DNA of 64,000 nt from Escherichia coli (lineage in GTDB: Bacteria > Pseudomonadota > Gammaproteobacteria > Enterobacterales > Enterobacteriaceae), in the NCBI RefSeq assembly GCF_001677475.2, contig NZ_CP015229.1; one strand, 5' to 3'. The notes under the pieces are model-generated. The model searched no databases. It had not been told where the DNA came from and saw only the letters and a list, made by a program, of their open reading frames with translations. Made by a program: the position numbers and the translations under genes. Position 1 is the stretch's first letter. Each line of letters opens with the position of its first letter. Below, one piece after another: positions 40,196-54,004 of this stretch.

Positions 40196-41467
40196 ATGGA
40201 AGACGACTGCGACATTATTATTATTGGTGCCGGTATTGCAGGCACCGCTTGCGCGTTACGCTGCGCGCGAGCGGGTTTATCCGTTTTGTTACTGGAACGC
40301 GCTGAAATCCCCGGCAGCAAAAATCTTTCCGGCGGGCGTTTATATACCCAGGCGCTCGCGGAACTCCTCCCACAATTTCATCTGACCGCGCCTCTTGAAC
40401 GACGCATCACTCACGAAAGCCTTTCCCTGTTAACGCCGGATGGCGCAACGACGTTTTCCAGCTTACAGCCCGGCGGTGAATCCTGGAGTGTATTACGTGC
40501 ACGTTTCGATCCGTGGCTGGTTGCCGAAGCCGAAAAAGAAGGTGTCGAATGCATCCCTGGTGCGACGGTGGATGCGCTGTATGAAGAAAACGGCAGGGTG
40601 TGTGGTGTCATTTGTGGTGACGATATTCTCCGCGCCCGTTATGTGGTGCTGGCAGAAGGTGCCAACAGCGTCCTGGCTGAACGTCACGGGTTAGTGACTC
40701 GTCCTGCTGGCGAAGCGATGGCGTTGGGGATCAAAGAAGTGCTGTCGCTGGAAACATCCGCTATTGAAGAACGTTTTCATCTGGAGAATAACGAAGGCGC
40801 AGCGTTGCTGTTCAGCGGCGGGATCTGTGATGACTTACCCGGCGGCGCATTTCTTTATACTAATCAACAAACGCTCTCGTTAGGGATTGTTTGCCCGCTC
40901 TCTTCCCTTACGCAAAGTCGTGTTCCGGCAAGCGAGCTGCTGGCTCGCTTTAAAACGCATCCGGCAGTGCGCCCGCTTATCAAAAACACGGAATCACTGG
41001 AGTATGGTGCGCATCTGGTGCCAGAAGGTGGCTTGCACAGTATGCCGGTGCAATACGCCGGTAACGGCTGGCTGCTGCTGGGCGATGCGTTGCGCAGTTG
41101 CGTCAATACCGGAATTTCCGTGCGCGGCATGGATATGGCGCTAACTGGCGCGCAGGCGGCGGCACAAACGCTGATAAGCGCCTGCCAGCATCGCGAGCCG
41201 CAAAATCTGTTTGCGCTTTATCATTACAACGTAGAGCGCAGCCTGCTGTGGGATGTTCTACAGCGCTATCAGCATGTTCCGGCGCTTTTGCAACGCCCTG
41301 GCTGGTATCGGGCGTGGCCTGCGCTAATGCAGGATATTTCCCGTGATTTATGGGATCAGGGTGATAAACCTGTTCCGCCGCTGCGCCAGTTGCTCTGGCG
41401 TCATTTACGTCGTCATGGCCTGTGGCATCTGGCGGGCGATGTTGTCAGGAGTATTCGATGTCTGTAG
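40196..41467 (+). CDS. ygcN: FAD-dependent oxidoreductase, FixC / ETF-quinone-oxidoreductase-like
   Basis: Start at ATG 40196 (MEDDCDIIIIGAGIAGTACA…, FAD-binding GxGxxG), 423 aa; ORF-track start is TTG 40169. Confidence 0.88.
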   Translation: MEDDCDIIIIGAGIAGTACALRCARAGLSVLLLERAEIPGSKNLSGGRLYTQALAELLPQFHLTAPLERRITHESLSLLTPDGATTFSSLQPGGESWSVLRARFDPWLVAEAEKEGVECIPGATVDALYEENGRVCGVICGDDILRARYVVLAEGANSVLAERHGLVTRPAGEAMALGIKEVLSLETSAIEERFHLENNEGAALLFSGGICDDLPGGAFLYTNQQTLSLGIVCPLSSLTQSRVPASELLARFKTHPAVRPLIKNTESLEYGAHLVPEGGLHSMPVQYAGNGWLLLGDALRSCVNTGISVRGMDMALTGAQAAAQTLISACQHREPQNLFALYHYNVERSLLWDVLQRYQHVPALLQRPGWYRAWPALMQDISRDLWDQGDKPVPPLRQLLWRHLRRHGLWHLAGDVVRSIRCL

Positions 41468-41734: not shown

Positions 41735-42310
41735 ATGCCCCTCTTACACCTGCTCCGCCAGAATCCGGTGATTGCTGCCGTTAAAGATAATGCCAGCCTG
41801 CAACTGGCAATCGACTCTGAATGCCAGTTTATTTCCGTGTTGTACGGCAATATCTGCACCATTAGTCAAATCGTTAAAAAGATTAAAAATGCCGGAAAAT
41901 ATGCTTTTATTCATGTTGATTTGCTGGAAGGCGCGTCAAATAAAGAAGTGGTGATTCAGTTTTTGAAACTGGTGACTGAGGCGGATGGAATTATCAGCAC
42001 CAAAGCATCGATGCTAAAAGCGGCAAAAGCGGAAGGTTTTTTCTGTATTCATCGTCTGTTTATTGTTGATTCAATTTCGTTTCACAACATTGATAAGCAA
42101 GTTGCGCAATCGAATCCGGATTGTATTGAGATCCTGCCAGGCTGTATGCCCAAAGTGCTGGGCTGGGTGACGGAGAAAATCCGCCAACCGCTGATTGCCG
42201 GCGGGCTGGTGTGCGATGAAGAAGATGCGCGTAATGCGATTAACGCGGGTGTTGTGGCGCTTTCCACCACGAATACCGGGGTCTGGACGTTAGCGAAAAA
42301 ATTGCTTTGA
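41735..42310 (+). CDS. ygcP: GlpP-family (glycerol-3-phosphate-responsive-antiterminator-like) protein
   Basis: 191 aa; G3P_antiterm-type protein by recall of E. coli ygcP annotation. RNA-binding antiterminator function is inferred from the family only. Confidence 0.85.
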   Translation: MPLLHLLRQNPVIAAVKDNASLQLAIDSECQFISVLYGNICTISQIVKKIKNAGKYAFIHVDLLEGASNKEVVIQFLKLVTEADGIISTKASMLKAAKAEGFFCIHRLFIVDSISFHNIDKQVAQSNPDCIEILPGCMPKVLGWVTEKIRQPLIAGGLVCDEEDARNAINAGVVALSTTNTGVWTLAKKLL

Positions 42311-42339
42311 CGGGATACTCGTAACGAGTTGAATTTGTG

Positions 42340-42420
42340 TGATTTGTAGGCTGCACGCCACATCCGACATTCAGCGCCTGATACGACGCTTGACGCTTGA
42401 CGCGTCTTATCAGGCTTGCA
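42340..42420. repeat. REP/BIME-type palindromic elements between convergent ygcP and ygcQ
   Basis: GCCTGATACGACGCTTGACGCTTGACGCGTCTTATCAGGC at 42376-42415, plus an adjacent partial REP arm. Confidence 0.6.
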
Positions 42421-45508: not shown

Positions 45509-46963
45509 TTATTTTTCAATCGGATAGATAGTACCCGTATTCATAATGCCGTTAGGATCGAACTGCTTTTTCAGCCCTTCCAGCAACGCCCACGCGCTGC
45601 CGTGTTCCAGTTTGCTCCAGTGAACGCGATGTTTACCGATACCGTGGTGGTGCACCATCGAACCACCGAGGCGAATGGTTTCTTCGCAGATGATTTTGTT
45701 GAGCGGATTGTGGTACTTGTCGATTTCCTCTTCCGGCTTACAGTCAACGACGTTGTAGTCGTAGACGAAGTACATGTTGGTGCCGTTCTGGTAGCTATGA
45801 GAGGAGTGACCGCCCAGCATGGTGATGTCGTCGGCGTGCGGGAACTCGGTACGAATACGGTTAATAACGCTTTCGTAGATTTCGTGAATGCAGCTCCAGC
45901 AGCCGGACACTTCGGTGGTAAAGCCCATGTTGCCGGTTTTGAGGATCTGCACACGTTCAGCGGCCACTTTATCCGGCCCCCAGTTCAGGTGATTAAACCA
46001 GGTTTCGATCAGCTTGCTGTCCACTCGCTGGCATTGCGGGTAACGTGCCACGATTTCCGCAATCCCTTCGCCTGTCGCCTTCGCAATGCGAGGGTTACCT
46101 TCAGCCATAAAGATCAGCACACATTTACCATCGGCAAAATGGGTGAAGTGTTGGGTGCCATCTTCAGCGTCATACAAACGAGCGATCGACGGACGATACC
46201 CTTCCACCATGATTTCACGCAGGATGTTGAAGCCGGTTTTCATGTCTTCCAGGATATAGCCGTAGAAGAGGTTGTTTTCCGGGGTGAACTTAAAGATTTT
46301 CACAGTTACTTCAGTGATATAGCACAATGCACCTTCGTTGCCGATGATGATGTGACGAATGTCCGGGCCTGCCGCGCGGCGTGGTACGTTTTTAATGCGT
46401 GTTACGGTGCCATCAGCCAATACTGCTTCCAGACCAACGACCATATCTTCGATTGCGCCGTAGAGTGTGGAGAACTGCCCGATACTGCGGGTTGCTACCA
46501 GGCCGCCCATCTGCGCCAGCGGCTTTGACTGCGGAGAATGCCCCGTGGTGTAACCTTTTTCACGCAACGCGTTTTCCAGCACTTCCAGCGGAACACCGCA
46601 TTGCGCCGTGGCCTGCATATTCTCAATATCAATATTAATGATTTGATTCATGGCAGAGCCGTCGAGCACCACCGAGTTTTCCACAACGGTTTCCAGCCCA
46701 CCTTCGGTGGCGGAAGCACCGGTACGTGGCACACCGTTAATTTTGTGCGCATTCATAAAATTCAGCACACGGGATACTTGTTCTGTGGAACCGAGTTTTA
46801 CGACCGCTGCCGGAATCGGCAAAGTATAAATGCCATGAATATCCGGAAATTTACGAAAACGGTCAATACTGTTCTTCTTTAATACTGTTTCATCGGTAAT
46901 TATGCGATCTGCACCAACAATTTCCTTTAGCTGGTCGACAATCGCTGCGCGAGATAAAGACAT
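45509..46963 (-). CDS. ygcU: FAD-linked oxidase, alkyl-DHAP-synthase/glycolate-oxidase-like
   Basis: 484 aa; PCMH-type FAD-binding domain followed by FAD-oxidase C-terminal domain. Confidence 0.88.
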   Translation of the reverse strand: MSLSRAAIVDQLKEIVGADRIITDETVLKKNSIDRFRKFPDIHGIYTLPIPAAVVKLGSTEQVSRVLNFMNAHKINGVPRTGASATEGGLETVVENSVVLDGSAMNQIINIDIENMQATAQCGVPLEVLENALREKGYTTGHSPQSKPLAQMGGLVATRSIGQFSTLYGAIEDMVVGLEAVLADGTVTRIKNVPRRAAGPDIRHIIIGNEGALCYITEVTVKIFKFTPENNLFYGYILEDMKTGFNILREIMVEGYRPSIARLYDAEDGTQHFTHFADGKCVLIFMAEGNPRIAKATGEGIAEIVARYPQCQRVDSKLIETWFNHLNWGPDKVAAERVQILKTGNMGFTTEVSGCWSCIHEIYESVINRIRTEFPHADDITMLGGHSSHSYQNGTNMYFVYDYNVVDCKPEEEIDKYHNPLNKIICEETIRLGGSMVHHHGIGKHRVHWSKLEHGSAWALLEGLKKQFDPNGIMNTGTIYPIEK

Positions 46964-47032
46964 AGTAATTCCTTCCTGATAATAAAAATGGAATAATCAT
47001 TAATAAGAGAAAACAGAAACCACCGTTATGGA

Positions 47033-47818
47033 TTAGCGCACTAAATAACCACCATCGACCACTAATAAATGCCCGTTAACATAATTTGAAGCCGGACTTG
47101 CGAGGAATACGGCTGCGCCCATTAAATCCTGAGTATCGCCCCAACGGTTTGCTGGAATATGATCAAGAACGCGCTGATTGGTTTCTGGATTACTGCGTGT
47201 CGCCAGCGTAATATCTGTTGCATAATAGCCAGGGGCAATACCATTTACCTGAATATTATATTGACCTAGTTCATCACAATAAGCTTTGGTGAATCCGGCA
47301 AGAGCATGTTTAGTGGCAGAATATGCAGGTGACCATTGTCCACCTAAGTAAGAGAATAATGAACAGATATTAATGATTTTACCGCTTTTCTGCGGGATCA
47401 TAATTTTTGCAGCTTCATAGCTTAACTCGAATGCGGCGGTCAGGTTCACATCAATCATCGGGTCCCAGTCGGCACGACCGAAGTCCAGCACCTTATTCAG
47501 CTTACAAATACCGGCATTGTTAATCAGAATATCGACGGTACCGAAACGTTCGCAACAGGCGGCGATTATCTTCTGCGGCGCGCCTTCTGCGGTGATATCC
47601 ACCTGCATGAAGTCCACCTCAACACCCTGTTTTTCAATCATTTCCTTTGTTTCGCCGTTATCTTTAACGAAGCTTGGAATAAAGATATTTGCGCCTGCTT
47701 TGGCCAGCGCCATGGCAAATGCCTGGCCTAAACCGCTATTCCCGCCGGTAACAATTGCGGTTTTACCTTTCAGGGAGAAAAAATCCATTGAGAACGCATT
47801 GAGAGATTCGATTGACAT
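47033..47818 (-). CDS. ygcW: Short-chain dehydrogenase/reductase (SDR)
   Basis: Start at ATG 47818 (MSIESLNAFS…), GGAG SD, 261 aa; TGGNSGLG cofactor motif, YxxxK active site. Confidence 0.88.
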   Translation of the reverse strand: MSIESLNAFSMDFFSLKGKTAIVTGGNSGLGQAFAMALAKAGANIFIPSFVKDNGETKEMIEKQGVEVDFMQVDITAEGAPQKIIAACCERFGTVDILINNAGICKLNKVLDFGRADWDPMIDVNLTAAFELSYEAAKIMIPQKSGKIINICSLFSYLGGQWSPAYSATKHALAGFTKAYCDELGQYNIQVNGIAPGYYATDITLATRSNPETNQRVLDHIPANRWGDTQDLMGAAVFLASPASNYVNGHLLVVDGGYLVR

Positions 47819-47840
47819 AGTTAGCTCCAATTTCCGTAAG

Positions 47841-47888
47841 GCAAAAAAAAAGAAAGGTAACTTCCCCCGCGAGAGGGAAGTTACCTTT
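47841..47888 (-). terminator. Intrinsic-terminator-like hairpin plus U9 tract in the ygcW 5' leader (candidate attenuator)
   Basis: Minus-strand transcript: AAAGGUAACUUCCC-UCUCGCGG-GGGAAGUUACCUUU (14-bp stem) then CUUUUUUUUU, ending about 24 nt upstream of the ygcW ATG. No gene ends upstream on this strand. Confidence 0.6.
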
Positions 47889-48064
47889 CTCATTATCTCT
47901 GGTAACTGGAGATAATTTTTATCATAAGGGCATAATCGCTAATGTGATCGTAATCACAGTGTGATATTCGAATTGTCAAATAATTTTAAAAAGCAGAAGC
48001 GTGATTACTCTCACACAACACCACTGCTTTCCATGTTATTTCTTATTGCAATTACTAGAGACCT

Positions 48065-48112
48065 GAGAAAAGTAATCCACCTGAAAGGGCGGCTTACTTT
48101 TCTCTTTTTTTT
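48065..48112 (+). terminator. Intrinsic-terminator-like hairpin plus U8 tract in the yqcE 5' leader (candidate attenuator)
   Basis: GAGAAAAGTAA-(18-nt loop)-TTACTTTTCTC (11-bp perfect stem) then TTTTTTTT, ending 25 nt upstream of the yqcE ATG. Confidence 0.6.
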
Positions 48113-48136
48113 GTCTATTACAAATGGGAATACGAT

Positions 48137-49414
48137 ATGCAACACAACTCATATCGCCGTTGGATAACCCTCGCGATAATTAGTTTTAGCGGCGGCGTTA
48201 GTTTCGACCTGGCTTATTTACGTTATATTTATCAAATTCCCATGGCGAAATTTATGGGATTCAGCAATACCGAGATAGGTTTAATAATGAGTACCTTTGG
48301 TATTGCGGCTATTATTCTTTATGCCCCCAGCGGCGTTATTGCCGATAAATTTTCACACCGCAAAATGATTACTTCCGCGATGATCATTACCGGATTACTG
48401 GGTCTGTTAATGGCAACATATCCACCGCTGTGGGTAATGCTCTGTATTCAGGTCGCCTTTGCGATAACGACGATTTTAATGCTGTGGTCGGTGTCGATTA
48501 AAGCCGCATCGTTGCTGGGCGATCATAGCGAGCAAGGGAAAATTATGGGCTGGATGGAAGGGCTGCGCGGCGTCGGTGTAATGTCGCTGGCGGTGTTTAC
48601 CATGTGGGTCTTTTCTCGCTTTGCACCGGATGACAGCGCCAGCCTGAAAACGGTCATTATTATCTATAGTGTGGTTTACATTCTGCTGGGCATTTTGTGT
48701 TGGTTTTTTGTTAGCGATAACAACAACCTGCGCAATACCAATAACGAAGAAAAACAGTCATTCCAGCTTAGCGACATCCTGGCCGTTTTGCGCATCAGCA
48801 CCACCTGGTATTGCAGCATGGTGATTTTTGGTGTCTTCACCATCTACGCCATTCTGAGTTACTCCACCAACTATCTGACCGAAATGTACGGCATGTCGCT
48901 GGTGGCGGCGAGCTACATGGGGATTGTGATCAACAAAATATTCCGCGCACTGTGCGGCCCACTTGGTGGCATTATCACCACCTACAGCAAAGTGAAATCC
49001 CCTACCCGCGTGATCCAAATCCTTTCCGTACTCGGCTTGCTGGCGTTAACTGCCCTGCTCGTCACGAACTCTAACCCGCAATCGGTCGCGATGGGGATTG
49101 GCCTGATTTTACTGCTGGGATTCACCTGTTACGCCTCACGCGGGCTGTACTGGGCCTGCCCTGGCGAAGCGAGAACACCGTCTTACATTATGGGCACCAC
49201 GGTAGGTATTTGTTCGGTGATTGGATTCCTGCCGGATGTCTTCGTTTACCCGATTATCGGCTACTGGCAAGACACCCTGCCCGCTGCAGAAGCCTACCGC
49301 AATATGTGGCTGATGGGCATGGCGGCGCTTGCCATGGTGATCGTCTTTACCTTTTTGCTGTTCCAAAAAATTCGTACTGCTGATAGCACCCCTGCTATGG
49401 CTAGCAGCAAGTAA
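48137..49414 (+). CDS. yqcE: MFS transporter
   Basis: 425 aa; 12-TM MFS profile. Confidence 0.88.
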   Translation: MQHNSYRRWITLAIISFSGGVSFDLAYLRYIYQIPMAKFMGFSNTEIGLIMSTFGIAAIILYAPSGVIADKFSHRKMITSAMIITGLLGLLMATYPPLWVMLCIQVAFAITTILMLWSVSIKAASLLGDHSEQGKIMGWMEGLRGVGVMSLAVFTMWVFSRFAPDDSASLKTVIIIYSVVYILLGILCWFFVSDNNNLRNTNNEEKQSFQLSDILAVLRISTTWYCSMVIFGVFTIYAILSYSTNYLTEMYGMSLVAASYMGIVINKIFRALCGPLGGIITTYSKVKSPTRVIQILSVLGLLALTALLVTNSNPQSVAMGIGLILLLGFTCYASRGLYWACPGEARTPSYIMGTTVGICSVIGFLPDVFVYPIIGYWQDTLPAAEAYRNMWLMGMAALAMVIVFTFLLFQKIRTADSTPAMASSK

Positions 49415-49440
49415 GTCCAGAAAATTACAGGAGAAAAATC

Positions 49441-50919
49441 ATGTCGAAAAAATACATCATAGGGATTGATGGCGGAAGTCAGAGCACAAAAGTGGTGATG
49501 TATGATCTGGAAGGTAATGTGGTTTGCGAAGGCAAAGGCTTATTGCAGCCGATGCACACGCCAGATGCCGATACCGCAGAACATCCTGACGACGATTTAT
49601 GGGCATCATTATGTTTTGCCGGTCACGATTTGATGAGTCAGTTTGCCGGGAATAAAGAAGATATTGTCGGTATTGGTCTGGGATCCATCCGTTGCTGCCG
49701 TGCGTTATTGAAAGCCGATGGCACGCCAGCTGCGCCGTTGATTAGCTGGCAGGATGCACGCGTTACACGCCCTTACGAACATACGAATCCTGACGTGGCA
49801 TATGTCACCTCTTTTTCAGGTTATCTGACGCATCGCTTAACCGGCGAGTTTAAAGACAATATCGCCAACTATTTTGGTCAGTGGCCGGTGGATTATAAGA
49901 CCTGGGCATGGAGCGAAGATGCCGCGGTAATGGAAAAGTTTAATATCCCCCGCCAGATGCTTTTTGACGTGCAAATGCCGGGCACCGTTCTTGGGCATAT
50001 CACACCTCAAGCCGCGCTGGCGACGCATTTCCCGGCAGGACTGCCGGTTGTTTGTACCACCAGTGATAAACCGGTAGAAGCTCTGGGAGCTGGGTTACTG
50101 GATGATGAAACGGCGGTGATTTCTCTTGGCACCTACATCGCGCTGATGATGAACGGTAAAGCACTGCCGAAAGATCCAGTAGCGTACTGGCCGATTATGT
50201 CTTCTATTCCGCAAACATTGCTGTATGAAGGTTACGGTATCCGCAAAGGCATGTGGACAGTAAGCTGGCTGCGCGACATGTTAGGCGAGTCGTTAATTCA
50301 GGATGCCAAAGCACAGGATCTTTCACCGGAAGATTTGCTCAACAAAAAAGCTTCTTATGTGCCGCCTGGCTGTAATGGTCTGATGACGGTGCTGGACTGG
50401 CTGACCAATCCGTGGGAACCGTACAAACGCGGGATTATGATCGGCTTTGATTCCAGCATGGATTACGCATGGATATATCGTTCGATACTGGAAAGCGTGG
50501 CGCTGACGCTGAAGAACAATTACGACAATATGTGTAATGAAATGAATCACTTTGCAAAGCATGTGATCATTACTGGCGGCGGTTCGAACAGCGATCTGTT
50601 TATGCAGATTTTTGCCGACGTGTTCAACCTTCCGGCACGCCGTAACGCCATTAATGGTTGTGCAAGCCTGGGGGCAGCGATTAATACGGCGGTAGGTCTG
50701 GGGCTATACCCGGATTACGCAACGGCTGTCGACAAAATGGTTCGCGTGAAAGATATCTTTATGCCTGTTGAGAGCAACGCCAAACGCTACGACGCGATGA
50801 ATAAAGGCATTTTCAAAGACCTAACCAAACACACTGATGTGATCCTGAAAAAATCGTATGAAGTGATGCATGGTGAGCTGGGAAATGCGGATTCTATCCA
50901 GAGCTGGTCGAATGCGTGA
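49441..50919 (+). CDS. ygcE: FGGY-family carbohydrate kinase
   Basis: 492 aa; N-terminal IGIDGGSQSTKVVMYD (actin-like ATPase phosphate-1 motif), C-terminal GGGSNSDLFMQIFADV. Confidence 0.9.
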   Translation: MSKKYIIGIDGGSQSTKVVMYDLEGNVVCEGKGLLQPMHTPDADTAEHPDDDLWASLCFAGHDLMSQFAGNKEDIVGIGLGSIRCCRALLKADGTPAAPLISWQDARVTRPYEHTNPDVAYVTSFSGYLTHRLTGEFKDNIANYFGQWPVDYKTWAWSEDAAVMEKFNIPRQMLFDVQMPGTVLGHITPQAALATHFPAGLPVVCTTSDKPVEALGAGLLDDETAVISLGTYIALMMNGKALPKDPVAYWPIMSSIPQTLLYEGYGIRKGMWTVSWLRDMLGESLIQDAKAQDLSPEDLLNKKASYVPPGCNGLMTVLDWLTNPWEPYKRGIMIGFDSSMDYAWIYRSILESVALTLKNNYDNMCNEMNHFAKHVIITGGGSNSDLFMQIFADVFNLPARRNAINGCASLGAAINTAVGLGLYPDYATAVDKMVRVKDIFMPVESNAKRYDAMNKGIFKDLTKHTDVILKKSYEVMHGELGNADSIQSWSNA

Positions 50920-50964: not shown

Positions 50965-51786
50965 ATGGTTATCCCCGCTAACGCGGGGAACTCACTGAAA
51001 ACACCGGCGAGATCGTATTTTTTGCCGGTTTATCCCCGCTCGCGCGGGGAACTCTACCGGAAGGCAGGCACATTAGATCAGGTGATCGGTTTATCCCCGC
51101 TCGCGCGGGGAACTCCAGTGAGCGGAAGAAGAATGACTAACAGAGAGCGGTTTATCCCCGCTCGCGCGGGGAACTCCCCAGCCACAACAGCCACGCGTCG
51201 CGCTGTTCCGGTTTATCCCCGCTCGCGCGGGGAACTCGGAAACCGCCCCGGCGGTGGTTGGCTGTTTGCCGGTTTATCCCCGCTCGCGCGGGGAACTCTT
51301 TGCGCCGGAAATAGGAATCGTATTCGGTCTCGGTTTATCCCCGCTCGCGCGGGGAACTCTTATGCATCTCATCAAGCTTGTCGCCAAACGACGGTTTATC
51401 CCCGCTCGCGCGGGGAACTCTTAAATCGCGCTGGAAAAAAATGGTTTTTGCGCGGTTTATCCCCGCTCGCGCGGGGAACTCACACCCCGTTGCAATAAAT
51501 GGTCTGGGGGCTGCGGTTTATCCCCGCTCGCGCGGGGAACTCCAAACGCTTCTTCGTAGGCAGCACTGTAGGCCCGGTTTATCCCCGCTCGCGCGGGGAA
51601 CTCGGTGAAAAGATGAGTGCATACTGGTTTGTTTTCGGTTTATCCCCGCTCGCGCGGGGAACTCTCTTTTCCCGCTAATCACGACCAGATCCTGTCCGGT
51701 TTATCCCCGCTCGCGCGGGGAACTCGTAAAACCTCCTCGCGCCCACAATCGCAGCGGCGGTTTATCCCCGCTCGCGCGGGGAACTC
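50965..51786 (-). CRISPR. CRISPR array 2 (type I-E): 13 identical 29-nt repeats plus 1 degenerate terminal repeat, 13 spacers of 32 nt
   Basis: Repeat CGGTTTATCCCCGCTCGCGCGGGGAACTC recurs at 51026 + 61k for k=0..12. Degenerate distal repeat (GGTTATCCCCGCTAACGCGGGGAACTC) at 50966-50993. Leader on the queE side. Confidence 0.97.
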
Positions 51787-53090: not shown

Positions 53091-53945
53091 ATGCGCTATT
53101 TCATACTAATATTCACATTCGTGTGTTCCTTTGTTGCAGCCCAACCAACTATTGTCCCACAATTACAGCAACAAGTTACGGATCTTACGAGTAGCTTAAA
53201 CTCACAAGAAAAGAAAGAACTGACGCGGAAGTTAGAATCTATTTTCAATAATACCCAAGTGCAAATTGCTGTATTAATTGTTCCCACAACCAAAGACGAG
53301 ACAATTGAACAATATGCTACACGGGTTTTTGACAATTGGCGTTTAGGAGATGCCAAACGTAATGATGGGATACTGGTCATTGTTGCCTGGTCGGATCGTA
53401 CTGTCCGCATCCAGGTAGGTTATGGGCTGGAAGAAAAGGTAACCGATGCTCTGGCTGGAGATATCATCCGTAGCAACATGATACCCGCATTTAAACAACA
53501 AAAATTAGCTCAGGGATTAGAGCTAGCTATAAACGCTTTGAATAACCAACTCACTTCACAACACCAATATCCGGCTAATCCTTCAGAAAGTGAATCAGCG
53601 TCTTCCAGTGATCATTATTACTTTGCTATTTTTTGGGTATTTGCAGTGATGTTCTTCCCTTTCTGGTTTTTTCATCAAGGCAGTAGTTTTTGTCGCGCAT
53701 GTAAAAGTGGAGTCTGTATTTCAGCAATCTATCTTTTAGATTTATTCCTGTTCTCCGATAAAACTTTTTCCATTGCTGTATTTTCCTTCTTTTTTACTTT
53801 CACCATATTTATGGTCTTTACCTGTTTATGTGTACTTCAGAAAAAAGCATCTGGTAGAATTTATCATTCAGACAACAGCGGTTCCGGTGGCGGCTCAGAT
53901 AGCGGCGGATTTAGCGGCGGGGGCGGCGCATCTGGCCGCTGGTAA
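53091..53945 (+). CDS. ygcG: TPM-domain (TLP18.3/Psb32/MOLO-1-like) membrane-associated protein with Gly-rich C-terminal tail
   Basis: Start at ATG 53091 ([18 protein letters not shown]…, signal-peptide-like); ORF-track ATG at 53046 lacks an SD. TPM domain, TM segment, Gly/Ser-rich tail. Confidence 0.8.
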
Positions 53946-53954
53946 CTCAACCAT

Positions 53955-53985
53955 AAAAAATGCCAGCCCGGAGGCTGGCATTTTT
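53955..53985. terminator. Bidirectional rho-independent terminator between ygcG and eno
   Basis: AAAAAATGCCAGCC-cgga-GGCTGGCATTTTT with A/T runs on both sides, between convergent stops at 53945 and 54005. Confidence 0.8.
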
Positions 53986-54004
53986 AAATCAGATAAAGTC
54001 AGTC

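Follow-up and report, generated by a model that had tools for sequence, protein, structure and literature searches.

The gap of 318 bp between the divergently transcribed Escherichia coli genes ygcW (start codon ATG at 47818) and yqcE (ATG at 48137) holds two short leader regions arranged as mirror images. These are considered here within a stretch of 64,000 nucleotides of the E. coli chromosome (assembly GCF_001677475.2, contig NZ_CP015229.1; hereafter the window), which shares 99.6% identity with strain NRZ14408 and about 97% with K-12. With a probability of roughly three in four, the two leaders are conserved terminator/antiterminator switches of the GlpP type, which would be operated by YgcP, a GlpP-family protein encoded in the same locus, and combined with CRP-dependent initiation. 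An earlier note, made from the sequence alone, had proposed that the divergent ygc operons are controlled by two related attenuators in their leaders, the GlpP-like YgcP being the probable antiterminator; this core proposal is supported by every computational test that was run and by two transcriptome data sets.

Both leaders carry an intrinsic terminator. On the minus strand, the ygcW terminator (47843-47891) has a stem of 19 pairs with a 4-nt loop in the hairpin scan (47891-47850), followed by a U9 tract (47851-47843); the U9 tract had been described correctly in the earlier note, and the stem had been given as 14 bp. On the plus strand, the yqcE terminator (48065-48112) comprises the 11-bp basal stem already noticed (48065-48075 / 48094-48104), an imperfect inner stem on top of it, and a U8 tract (48105-48112). 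Folding against shuffled sequences confirms both structures. The 145-nt ygcW leader folds at −48.1 kcal/mol (z = −5.8) and the 140-nt yqcE leader at −33.8 kcal/mol (z = −4.5), and an equally stable shuffle was found in neither case (0/200 each). Each U tract stops 24 nt before the ATG, in agreement with the 24-25 nt first reported and, as also reported, no upstream gene ends at the hairpins on either strand according to the list of open reading frames (ORFs) and to the annotation. The 5′ arms of the two terminators do share a motif: TGAGAAARGTAAY occurs with 0 mismatches solely at the two leaders in the 64-kb window. The whole ygcW and yqcE half-regions can be aligned in register, from the CRP site through the start codon. 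Upstream of the 5′ arm the likeness continues as TTACYAGAGA-N2-5-TGAGAAA, with 2 exact matches in the window versus 0 expected, a count that is descriptive only since the pattern was derived from the same two leaders.

Transcript ends mapped at genome scale fall on both structures. Two short RNAs were listed in the ygcW-yqcE gap, ecr2774 (minus strand, 73 nt) and ecr2775 (plus strand, 63 nt), the latter also being visible in a northern blot (Romero 2014, Table S5 and Fig. 7, PMC4681348). The published coordinates, 2898315-2898388 in the case of ecr2774 (PMC4681348, Table S5), refer to an older version of the K-12 sequence. They were shifted by +1978, an offset checked on csrB, and the K-12 gene record was used for the transfer to the window. 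After conversion, ecr2774 is the ygcW leader RNA (47838-47911, minus strand, about 74 nt) and ecr2775 is the yqcE leader RNA (48050-48113, plus strand, about 64 nt). Both RNAs begin a few bases past an extended −10 element and end at the U run. Term-seq 3′ ends were reported at 2900311(-) and 2900556(+) (Adams 2021, PMC7815308), which correspond to position 47856 in the ygcW leader and to position 48101 in the yqcE leader. For these two ends, the Rho scores are 0.50 and 0.61, both classified as 'No', and the intrinsic-terminator scores are 15.8 and 11.4, a value above 3 predicting intrinsic termination; the peak at the ygcW leader is strong (40,640) (PMC7815308). Both leaders therefore display what characterizes an intrinsic, Rho-independent terminator: a stem-loop containing G+C, a U run, and a Rho-independent 3′ end at that place. 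The published short RNAs and the Rho-independent 3′ ends together demonstrate the release of a 64-74-nt RNA at the leader terminators. The earlier note had suggested comparing start sites and transcript ends with the hairpins: the mapped 5′ ends of ecr2774 and ecr2775 lie upstream of both hairpins, and transcripts do end at the terminators, as seen by Term-seq and by the 3′ ends of the two short RNAs. The ygcW-yqcE locus is discussed in the text of neither article (PMC4681348, PMC7815308). The view that control of this locus had not been described is thus correct as far as interpretation goes; the short RNAs and the 3′ ends themselves were already present in the supplements.

Each leader is preceded by its own promoter and CRP site. 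The ygcW promoter, read from the sequence, has the extended −10 element TGaTAAAAA (47916-47924, minus strand), and the 5′ end of ecr2774 lies 5 nt downstream of it. Other ygcW-type leaders are preceded by a conserved equivalent, TGnTAAAAAT. The yqcE promoter, identified in the same way, has the extended −10 element TGtTATTTC (48034-48042, plus strand), conserved as cATGtTATTT in orthologous loci, and ecr2775 starts at 48050. CRP site 1, TGTGATCGTAATCACA (47943-47958), matches the consensus perfectly; its centre is located about 39.5-41.5 bp upstream of the start of the ygcW leader, a class II-like position. CRP binds this site in vitro with a dissociation constant of 1.7 nM (entry 'ygcW / yqcE', Footprint-seq Table 1, PMC12871828). 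CRP site 2, CGTGATTACTCTCACA (48000-48015), has one mismatch to the consensus, is kept across the Enterobacterales loci, and is centred about 41.5-42.5 bp upstream of the start of the yqcE leader. At least two CRP-like sites were found between the leaders in all Enterobacterales loci having a divergent leader pair (48/48).

The leaders contain a second conserved pairing, which competes with the terminator. A scan for YgcP homologues, with one genome per species, gave 65 loci, in which leaders were found by a pattern search; a covariance model was then built from 90 leaders. All compared loci were fetched through a YgcP-homologous protein, which limits the counts of co-occurrence. The consensus reads, from the RNA 5′ end, a few nucleotides, AGUUACY, 0-3 nt, NGAGA, 3-4 nt, GAGAAARGUAACUUCC, a variable apical stem-loop, a 3′ arm ending in YUUUCUC, and U7-9. 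AGUUACY and RGUAACU can form a helix, hereafter called P1, which encloses a 14-15-nt loop with two GAGA repeats (AGAGA-N3-4-GAGAAA), AGAGA and GAGAAA being invariant or nearly so in the 90 leaders. In the ygcW leader (minus strand), the 5′ strand of P1 is AGUUACC (47901-47907), complementary to 47879-47885, where the 3′ strand GGUAACU is common to the terminator 5′ arm. The loop between them, AGAGAUAAUGAGAAA (47886-47900), with its two GAGA repeats, is the proposed protein-binding site, as suggested by its conservation. In the yqcE leader (plus strand), the 5′ strand AAUUACU (48050-48056) forms six pairs, through 48051-48056, with AGUAAU (48071-48076), again within the terminator 5′ arm, and the loop AGAGACCUGAGAAA (48057-48070) also shows the two GAGA repeats, as identified by pattern and conservation.

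Covariation argues that both pairings are used. The terminator stem is paired in 98.3% of the alignment cells, with compensatory changes. P1 is paired in 93.6% of the cells, versus 15-54% when the partner strand is slid; for a set of 20 representative leaders spanning several phyla, the values are 97.1% versus 18-56%. Changes on both sides occur in 3 of the 7 P1 pairs (G-C to A-U, U-A to C-G, A-U to G-C). For instance, the yqcE copy has a G-C swapped for an A-U as compared with the ygcW copy, AGUUGCU faces AGCGACU in Listeria, and AAUUACU faces AGUAAUU in Sporomusa. In Faecalibacterium the two strands are quite different yet complementary (UGUUUGUUUC with GAAACGGACA). Moreover, column 38, in the 5′ arm, covaries with its P1 partner (column 18) and with its terminator partner (column 72), which is what two mutually exclusive pairings predict. 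The two structures differ widely in stability. P1 pairing is the minimum-free-energy fold of the nascent RNA, at −6.7 kcal/mol for ygcW and −1.4 kcal/mol for yqcE, whereas the terminators reach −34.2 kcal/mol (ygcW, 74-nt RNA) and −21.6 kcal/mol (yqcE). Termination is therefore the default outcome, and P1 needs a stabilising factor.

The antiterminator pairing had been imagined otherwise in the earlier note, which pointed to a second hairpin in the ygcW leader (TTATCTC-N9-GAGATAA, 47893-47915), with GUUACC in its loop facing GGUAAC of the terminator arm. The hairpin is present in the sequence. It is not conserved, with 40.4% pairing, which is also the level of the shuffle average and of the slid controls, and the RNA 5′ end at 47911 falls inside it; it was therefore discarded as an antiterminator, and only its loop sequence GUUACC matters. 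The GUUACC:GGUAAC pairing itself stands, as the conserved AGUUACY:RGUAACU; it does not depend on the hairpin, which is specific to E. coli, and the yqcE leader has the pairing as well. The covariation across orthologues that had been suggested as a check is thus found for the pairing that overlaps the terminator 5′ arm. Ribosome-mediated attenuation by a leader peptide was also considered and rejected: the sole AUG (47893) is absent from yqcE-type leaders and from many others, which read CCUGAGA or CGAAGAGA at this position. In the mechanical list, a 286-aa ORF arises from the ATG at 47893, which lies within the GAGA loop and shares the ygcW frame; the annotated ygcW start at 47818 is the real one, the extension (47816-47893, minus strand) crossing the terminator and not being conserved.

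The earlier note had also asked whether the stem-loops are conserved in orthologous loci. They are, and across phyla. According to the covariance model, exactly two divergent copies are present in each of 48 Enterobacterales loci, the window included (E < 1e-7), from Escherichia to Serratia, Pantoea, Erwinia, Rahnella and Budvicia. Strong further copies were found in Thalassobacillus (one) and, in loci for which the starting point was a more remote YgcP homologue, in Vibrio hannami, Clostridium sediminicola and Sporomusa. Weaker copies at consistent positions occur in five Listeria species, Bacillus sp., Lachnoclostridium and Faecalibacterium. Model matches on the opposite strand at each terminator (e.g. 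window 47818-47900, plus strand, 36.9 bits) are echoes of the palindrome and were set aside. In ygc-type loci, the element follows a sigma-70-type promoter and precedes the first gene of a cassette operon. The cassette includes a YgcW-like short-chain dehydrogenase/reductase (SDR), a YgcU-like flavin adenine dinucleotide (FAD) oxidase, electron transfer flavoprotein (ETF) subunits, a YgcE-like FGGY kinase, a transporter of the major facilitator superfamily (MFS) or of the BCCT family, and a YgcP homologue; its gene order varies widely between taxa. Every element-bearing locus has a YgcP homologue, the loci having been fetched via that protein. No element was seen in the loci L015, L019, L025 and L032, the sequences of which end before the expected place. 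At the species level, the element is present in 5063 of 5426 complete E. coli genomes; no RefSeq annotation lies under it in the E. coli genomes listed, and Rfam gave no match at E <= 1 inside 47800-48150. Rfam models likewise matched neither the B. subtilis-group glp leaders, described below, nor the Clostridium and Sporomusa ygc leaders.

A few loci depart from the usual picture of two distinct leaders. In Limnobaculum allomyrinae and Budvicia, the terminators of the two divergent leaders do not differ in sequence within a genome, and in Enterobacillus they are 96% identical (L034 16255-16653, L042 16310-16667, L055 16215-16599), as compared with about 50-60% in other genomes, a similarity suggestive of gene conversion within the inverted pair. 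In Limnobaculum eriocheiris (L033 13877-13960), the ygcW-yqcE gap is only about 130 bp long and contains one palindromic hairpin flanked by an A run and a T run, with neither P1 strands nor promoters; it looks as though both leaders had been reduced to a single bidirectional terminator.

The identity of YgcP provides a candidate for the stabilising factor. The protein (ygcP, 41735-42310, plus strand) belongs to the GlpP family, as had been recognised from the sequence: it is a full-length match to Pfam PF04309 (G3P_antiterm, positions 1-173 of 173, E 7e-63), and it aligns with the solved Listeria protein PDB 3KTS (E 4e-28) and, at 28% identity without gaps, with the GlpP of the B. subtilis group (E 2e-35). 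Conserved GG and S/T-rich C-terminal segments in the 3KTS alignment would be consistent with a phosphate-binding barrel. Since ygcP is the sole regulator-like gene in the locus and encodes a member of the GlpP family, we infer that YgcP is the antiterminator.

In B. subtilis, GlpP mediates glycerol-3-phosphate-dependent antitermination at the glpD, glpFK and glpTQ leaders. The glp region of the B. subtilis group was retrieved by scanning metagenomes for a primer published in PMC9604022, and both primer pairs match. Its glpD leader reads GGUC-CUGAGA-CGA-GGAGA-GACC and its glpFK leader UGUG-AU-GGAGA-ACUC-GGAGA-C-CACA, in both cases running straight into the terminator 5′ arm. At the glpD leader of B. 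subtilis, induction is lost in a glpP deletion (PMC9604022). Three more bacillar glpD/glpFK leaders (two from Priestia, and glpD of Bacillus sp. HMF5848) clearly have the same layout, and two Lysinibacillus leaders are degenerate versions of it. The common plan consists of two GAGA-type repeats 3-4 nt apart, enclosed by short complementary flanks, the 3′ strand of which is part of the terminator. By pattern and by eye, on few sequences, the ygc leaders (AGUUACY-AGAGA-N3-4-GAGAAA-RGUAACU) have the element type of GlpP-dependent leaders. In Lachnoclostridium, Faecalibacterium and Anaerococcus, the YgcP homologues are found in ordinary glycerol loci, with a glycerol-3-phosphate oxidase or a glycerol kinase, and the leaders of these loci have the same layout as the ygc leaders. 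Therefore, the element follows the protein family and not the ygc cassette.

Considering these data, the following mechanism may be envisaged. Each of the divergent promoters, with its extended −10 element and its class II-like CRP site, starts a short leader. P1, formed by AGUUACY just after the RNA 5′ end and by RGUAACU, is the first structure to appear during transcription, and by itself it is much too weak to withstand the terminator. By default, the leader folds into the very stable intrinsic terminator and RNA polymerase halts about 24-35 nt before the start codon, a step demonstrated by the published transcripts. In the presence of its effector, YgcP would bind the P1/GAGA element and keep the 5′ arm from the terminator, allowing readthrough into ygcW-ygcU-ygcS-ygcR-ygcQ and into yqcE-ygcE. 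The effector would probably be a phosphorylated product of the FGGY kinase YgcE, just as glycerol-3-phosphate, the product of GlpK, is for GlpP. Expression would then require both cAMP-CRP, at initiation, and a specific inducer, at elongation.

Other explanations of the two leaders may be imagined. In one of them, the leaders would be attenuators worked by another factor, such as an RNA-binding protein, a small RNA (sRNA) or a general elongation factor, or else leaky terminators free of regulation that quiet a rarely used locus. Such a possibility gains some weight from the merely predicted status of YgcP binding, from the location of ygcP in a separate operon devoid of the motif, and from one species that has ygcP without the motif. 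The covariation of the competing helix argues against a constitutive terminator, however, and the element was found solely beside GlpP-family genes, resembles validated GlpP targets, and belongs to a locus that encodes no other regulator, so that we regard this explanation as unlikely. Even less probable is a protein-independent riboswitch, in which the P1/GAGA element would bind a metabolite itself and YgcP would be uninvolved. A helix overlapping a terminator, a conserved loop and a position in a leader do have the look of a small riboswitch, and the tie between YgcP and the RNA is a predicted one. Yet the element amounts to a helix of 6-7 bp and a loop of 14-15 nt, no Rfam family matches it, and a PF04309 gene stands beside it in every locus, in two unrelated metabolic contexts, the loci having been fetched via the protein. 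In addition, the same layout is not self-sufficient at B. subtilis glpD, where induction is lost in a glpP deletion (PMC9604022).

Finally, ecr2774 and ecr2775 might act mainly as independent trans-acting sRNAs, their position before ygcW and yqcE being incidental. They are discrete, abundant and terminated transcripts with promoters of their own, as illustrated by the northern blot of ecr2775 and by the ygcW Term-seq peak of 40,640, and some fragments of 5′ untranslated regions do serve as sRNA sponges (Adams 2021, PMC7815308). Nevertheless, the element is always in the sense orientation, directly before the first gene of a ygc-type operon, across gene orders and phyla, and its conserved parts are the terminator, the competing strand and the GAGA loop, with no conserved seed-like single-stranded region. 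A role mainly in trans is thus highly improbable. An additional one, for instance as a decoy for YgcP, could exist alongside the cis role.

Several observations weigh against operation of the leaders by YgcP. The binding of the leader RNAs by this protein and readthrough caused by a ligand are predictions by analogy. YgcP is only 28% identical to the GlpP of the B. subtilis group, and the likeness of the ygc leaders to validated GlpP leaders concerns a short motif in a handful of sequences. No map of the GlpP binding site at nucleotide resolution is known to us, and the reviews give none. The operon of ygcP is separate and lacks the motif, and no third copy of the motif was found before ygcN-ygcO-ygcP or elsewhere in the 64-kb window. 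The co-occurrence of the element with ygcP in Enterobacterales is confounded by synteny. In Serratia microhaemolytica (L045 7431-7988), a YgcP homologue with 69% identity has neither another ygc gene nor a leader element within 10 kb. As to the RNA, the Term-seq 3′ ends fall 5 nt short of the U runs, in the A/U-rich base of the stem, a shortfall that is here assumed to be due to exonuclease trimming. P1 of the yqcE leader is very weak (−1.4 kcal/mol). The covariation of P1 reflects few independent events inherited by many orthologues, and represents good support, not proof. Lastly, a bare GAGA-N3-5-GAGA is not rare, with 4 matches in the window versus 2.35 expected; the repeats are informative by their position in all four leaders and not by the pattern alone.

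Comparison with known systems helps to situate the ygc leaders. As in the B. subtilis GlpP system, the locus encodes a PF04309 protein, and the promoter is followed by a short leader that contains an intrinsic terminator. Short complementary strands flank two GAGA-type repeats spaced by 3-4 nt, the 3′ strand being the beginning of the terminator 5′ arm; in both systems, specific antitermination adds to a global carbon-catabolite control of the promoter. On the other hand, the ygc host is a proteobacterium, the repeats are AGAGA...GAGAAA instead of the bacillar GGAGA...GGAGA, and the RNA 5′ end carries P1 as a conserved GUUAC:GUAAC helix, in contrast to the bacillar leaders, which start with AAGUUAAUA. 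Two mirror-image copies surround paired CRP sites, and the proteins share 28% identity. The genes behind the leaders (ygcW, ygcU, ygcS, ygcR, ygcQ, yqcE and ygcE) code for an SDR, a GlcD-like FAD oxidase, ETF, an MFS transporter and an FGGY kinase; they are not glpF, glpK and glpD. The ygc genes do not form a glycerol catabolism regulon, which bears on the regulon and not on the mechanism.

The leaders also resemble the ribonucleic antiterminators (RAT) recognised by BglG in the E. coli bgl operon and by SacY and LicT in the B. subtilis sac and lic operons, in that the terminator shares its 5′ arm with an antiterminator hairpin too weak to win unless a protein is bound; in E. coli bgl, antitermination is moreover combined with CRP-dependent initiation. 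However, the protein family is unrelated, the RNA differs in sequence and shape, and the ygc locus has no link with the phosphotransferase system. Antitermination of the BglG/SacY-RAT type was thus set aside, no CAT-PRD protein being annotated between queD and queE. HutP, TRAP and PyrR of B. subtilis similarly control a leader terminator through a protein that reads short repeated purine-rich motifs (NAG or GAG in the case of HutP and TRAP); their folds, oligomeric states, repeat number and spacing are different, and TRAP and PyrR promote termination instead of preventing it.

The mechanism would therefore be of a known kind, and the ygc leaders would represent a real, unannotated case of GlpP-type antitermination. 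The link of ygcP to these leaders is new with respect to the literature searched, in which ygcP, ygcW or yqcE was nowhere found to be linked to antitermination. If true, GlpP-type antitermination would thereby be described for the first time in a proteobacterium. From ygcN to ygcE, about ten E. coli K-12 genes have no known substrate or regulation; the switch provides a testable control logic for them, and a handle on the inducer and the substrate. It also explains two orphan "sRNAs" (2014) and two orphan Term-seq 3′ ends (2021) buried in supplements. Furthermore, the comparison defines a GlpP-family leader as P1 and two GAGA repeats abutting a terminator. Converted into a covariance model, this definition could serve to predict PF04309 regulons across bacteria, and it is useful for the existing glycerol-inducible expression tools based on GlpP.

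A broader scenario may be put forward tentatively, being as a whole rather doubtful. P1 with the tandem GAGA repeats would be the general recognition RNA of the whole PF04309 family, an uncatalogued RNA family spanning phyla, and the ygc version would belong to a self-contained module, made of a regulator, an RNA switch and a catabolic cassette, that was exchanged between Firmicutes and Enterobacterales. A phosphorylated product of YgcE, and not glycerol-3-phosphate, would be sensed by YgcP, so that E. coli would possess a second dedicated catabolic antitermination system besides BglG, and ecr2774 and ecr2775 would also be decoys that titrate YgcP and sharpen induction. As a separate observation, when the loci L057, L061, L062, L070, L071 and L072 (Listeria, Bacillus, Clostridium, Sporomusa, Vibrio) are compared with window positions 45509-47818, YgcW is 70-79% and YgcU 61-73% identical to the E. 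coli proteins. These identities are high for taxa so far apart, and point to horizontal transfer of the whole cassette together with regulator and RNA element. In many of these loci, a BCCT transporter is found beside or instead of the MFS one.

The surroundings of the leaders are as follows. After queD come ygcN-ygcO-ygcP on the plus strand, ygcQ-R-S-U-W on the minus strand and yqcE-ygcE on the plus strand again, then a CRISPR array and queE; besides ygcP, no further transcription factor or regulator gene is annotated in the E. coli locus. According to annotation and synteny, the minus-strand leader is followed by ygcW (SDR oxidoreductase, 47033-47818, minus strand), then by ygcU, ygcS, ygcR and ygcQ on the same strand, and the plus-strand leader by yqcE (MFS transporter) and ygcE (FGGY kinase) (48137-50919, plus strand). 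Four genes, ygcU, ygcS, ygcR and ygcQ, consequently separate ygcP from ygcW, and not three as first thought. The Term-seq list (Adams 2021, Supplementary file 1) contains a 3′ end within ygcN, at 2892741(+), about 40236-40280 in the window, that is about 85 nt past the ygcN start and just past a G+C-rich inverted repeat (CGCTTGCGCG...CGCGCGAGCG, then GGGTTTAT). It may be a premature end affecting ygcN-ygcO-ygcP, the operon of the proposed regulator. Between the convergent ygcP and ygcQ, 42327-42416 gives a weak match to the naRNA4 (nucleoid-associated RNA) model (25.5 bits, E 0.5), which is probably a palindrome of the repetitive extragenic (REP) type. The CRISPR (clustered regularly interspaced short palindromic repeats) array between ygcE and queE (51147-51605) has a period of 61 nt and the repeat CGGTTTATCCCCGCTCGCGCGGGGAACTC; a 177-aa ORF (50965-51498) that overlaps it is probably spurious. 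At the 3′ end of ygcG (53909-53990), a match to the enterobacterial sRNA STnc370 scores 34.6 bits, below the gathering score of 54.

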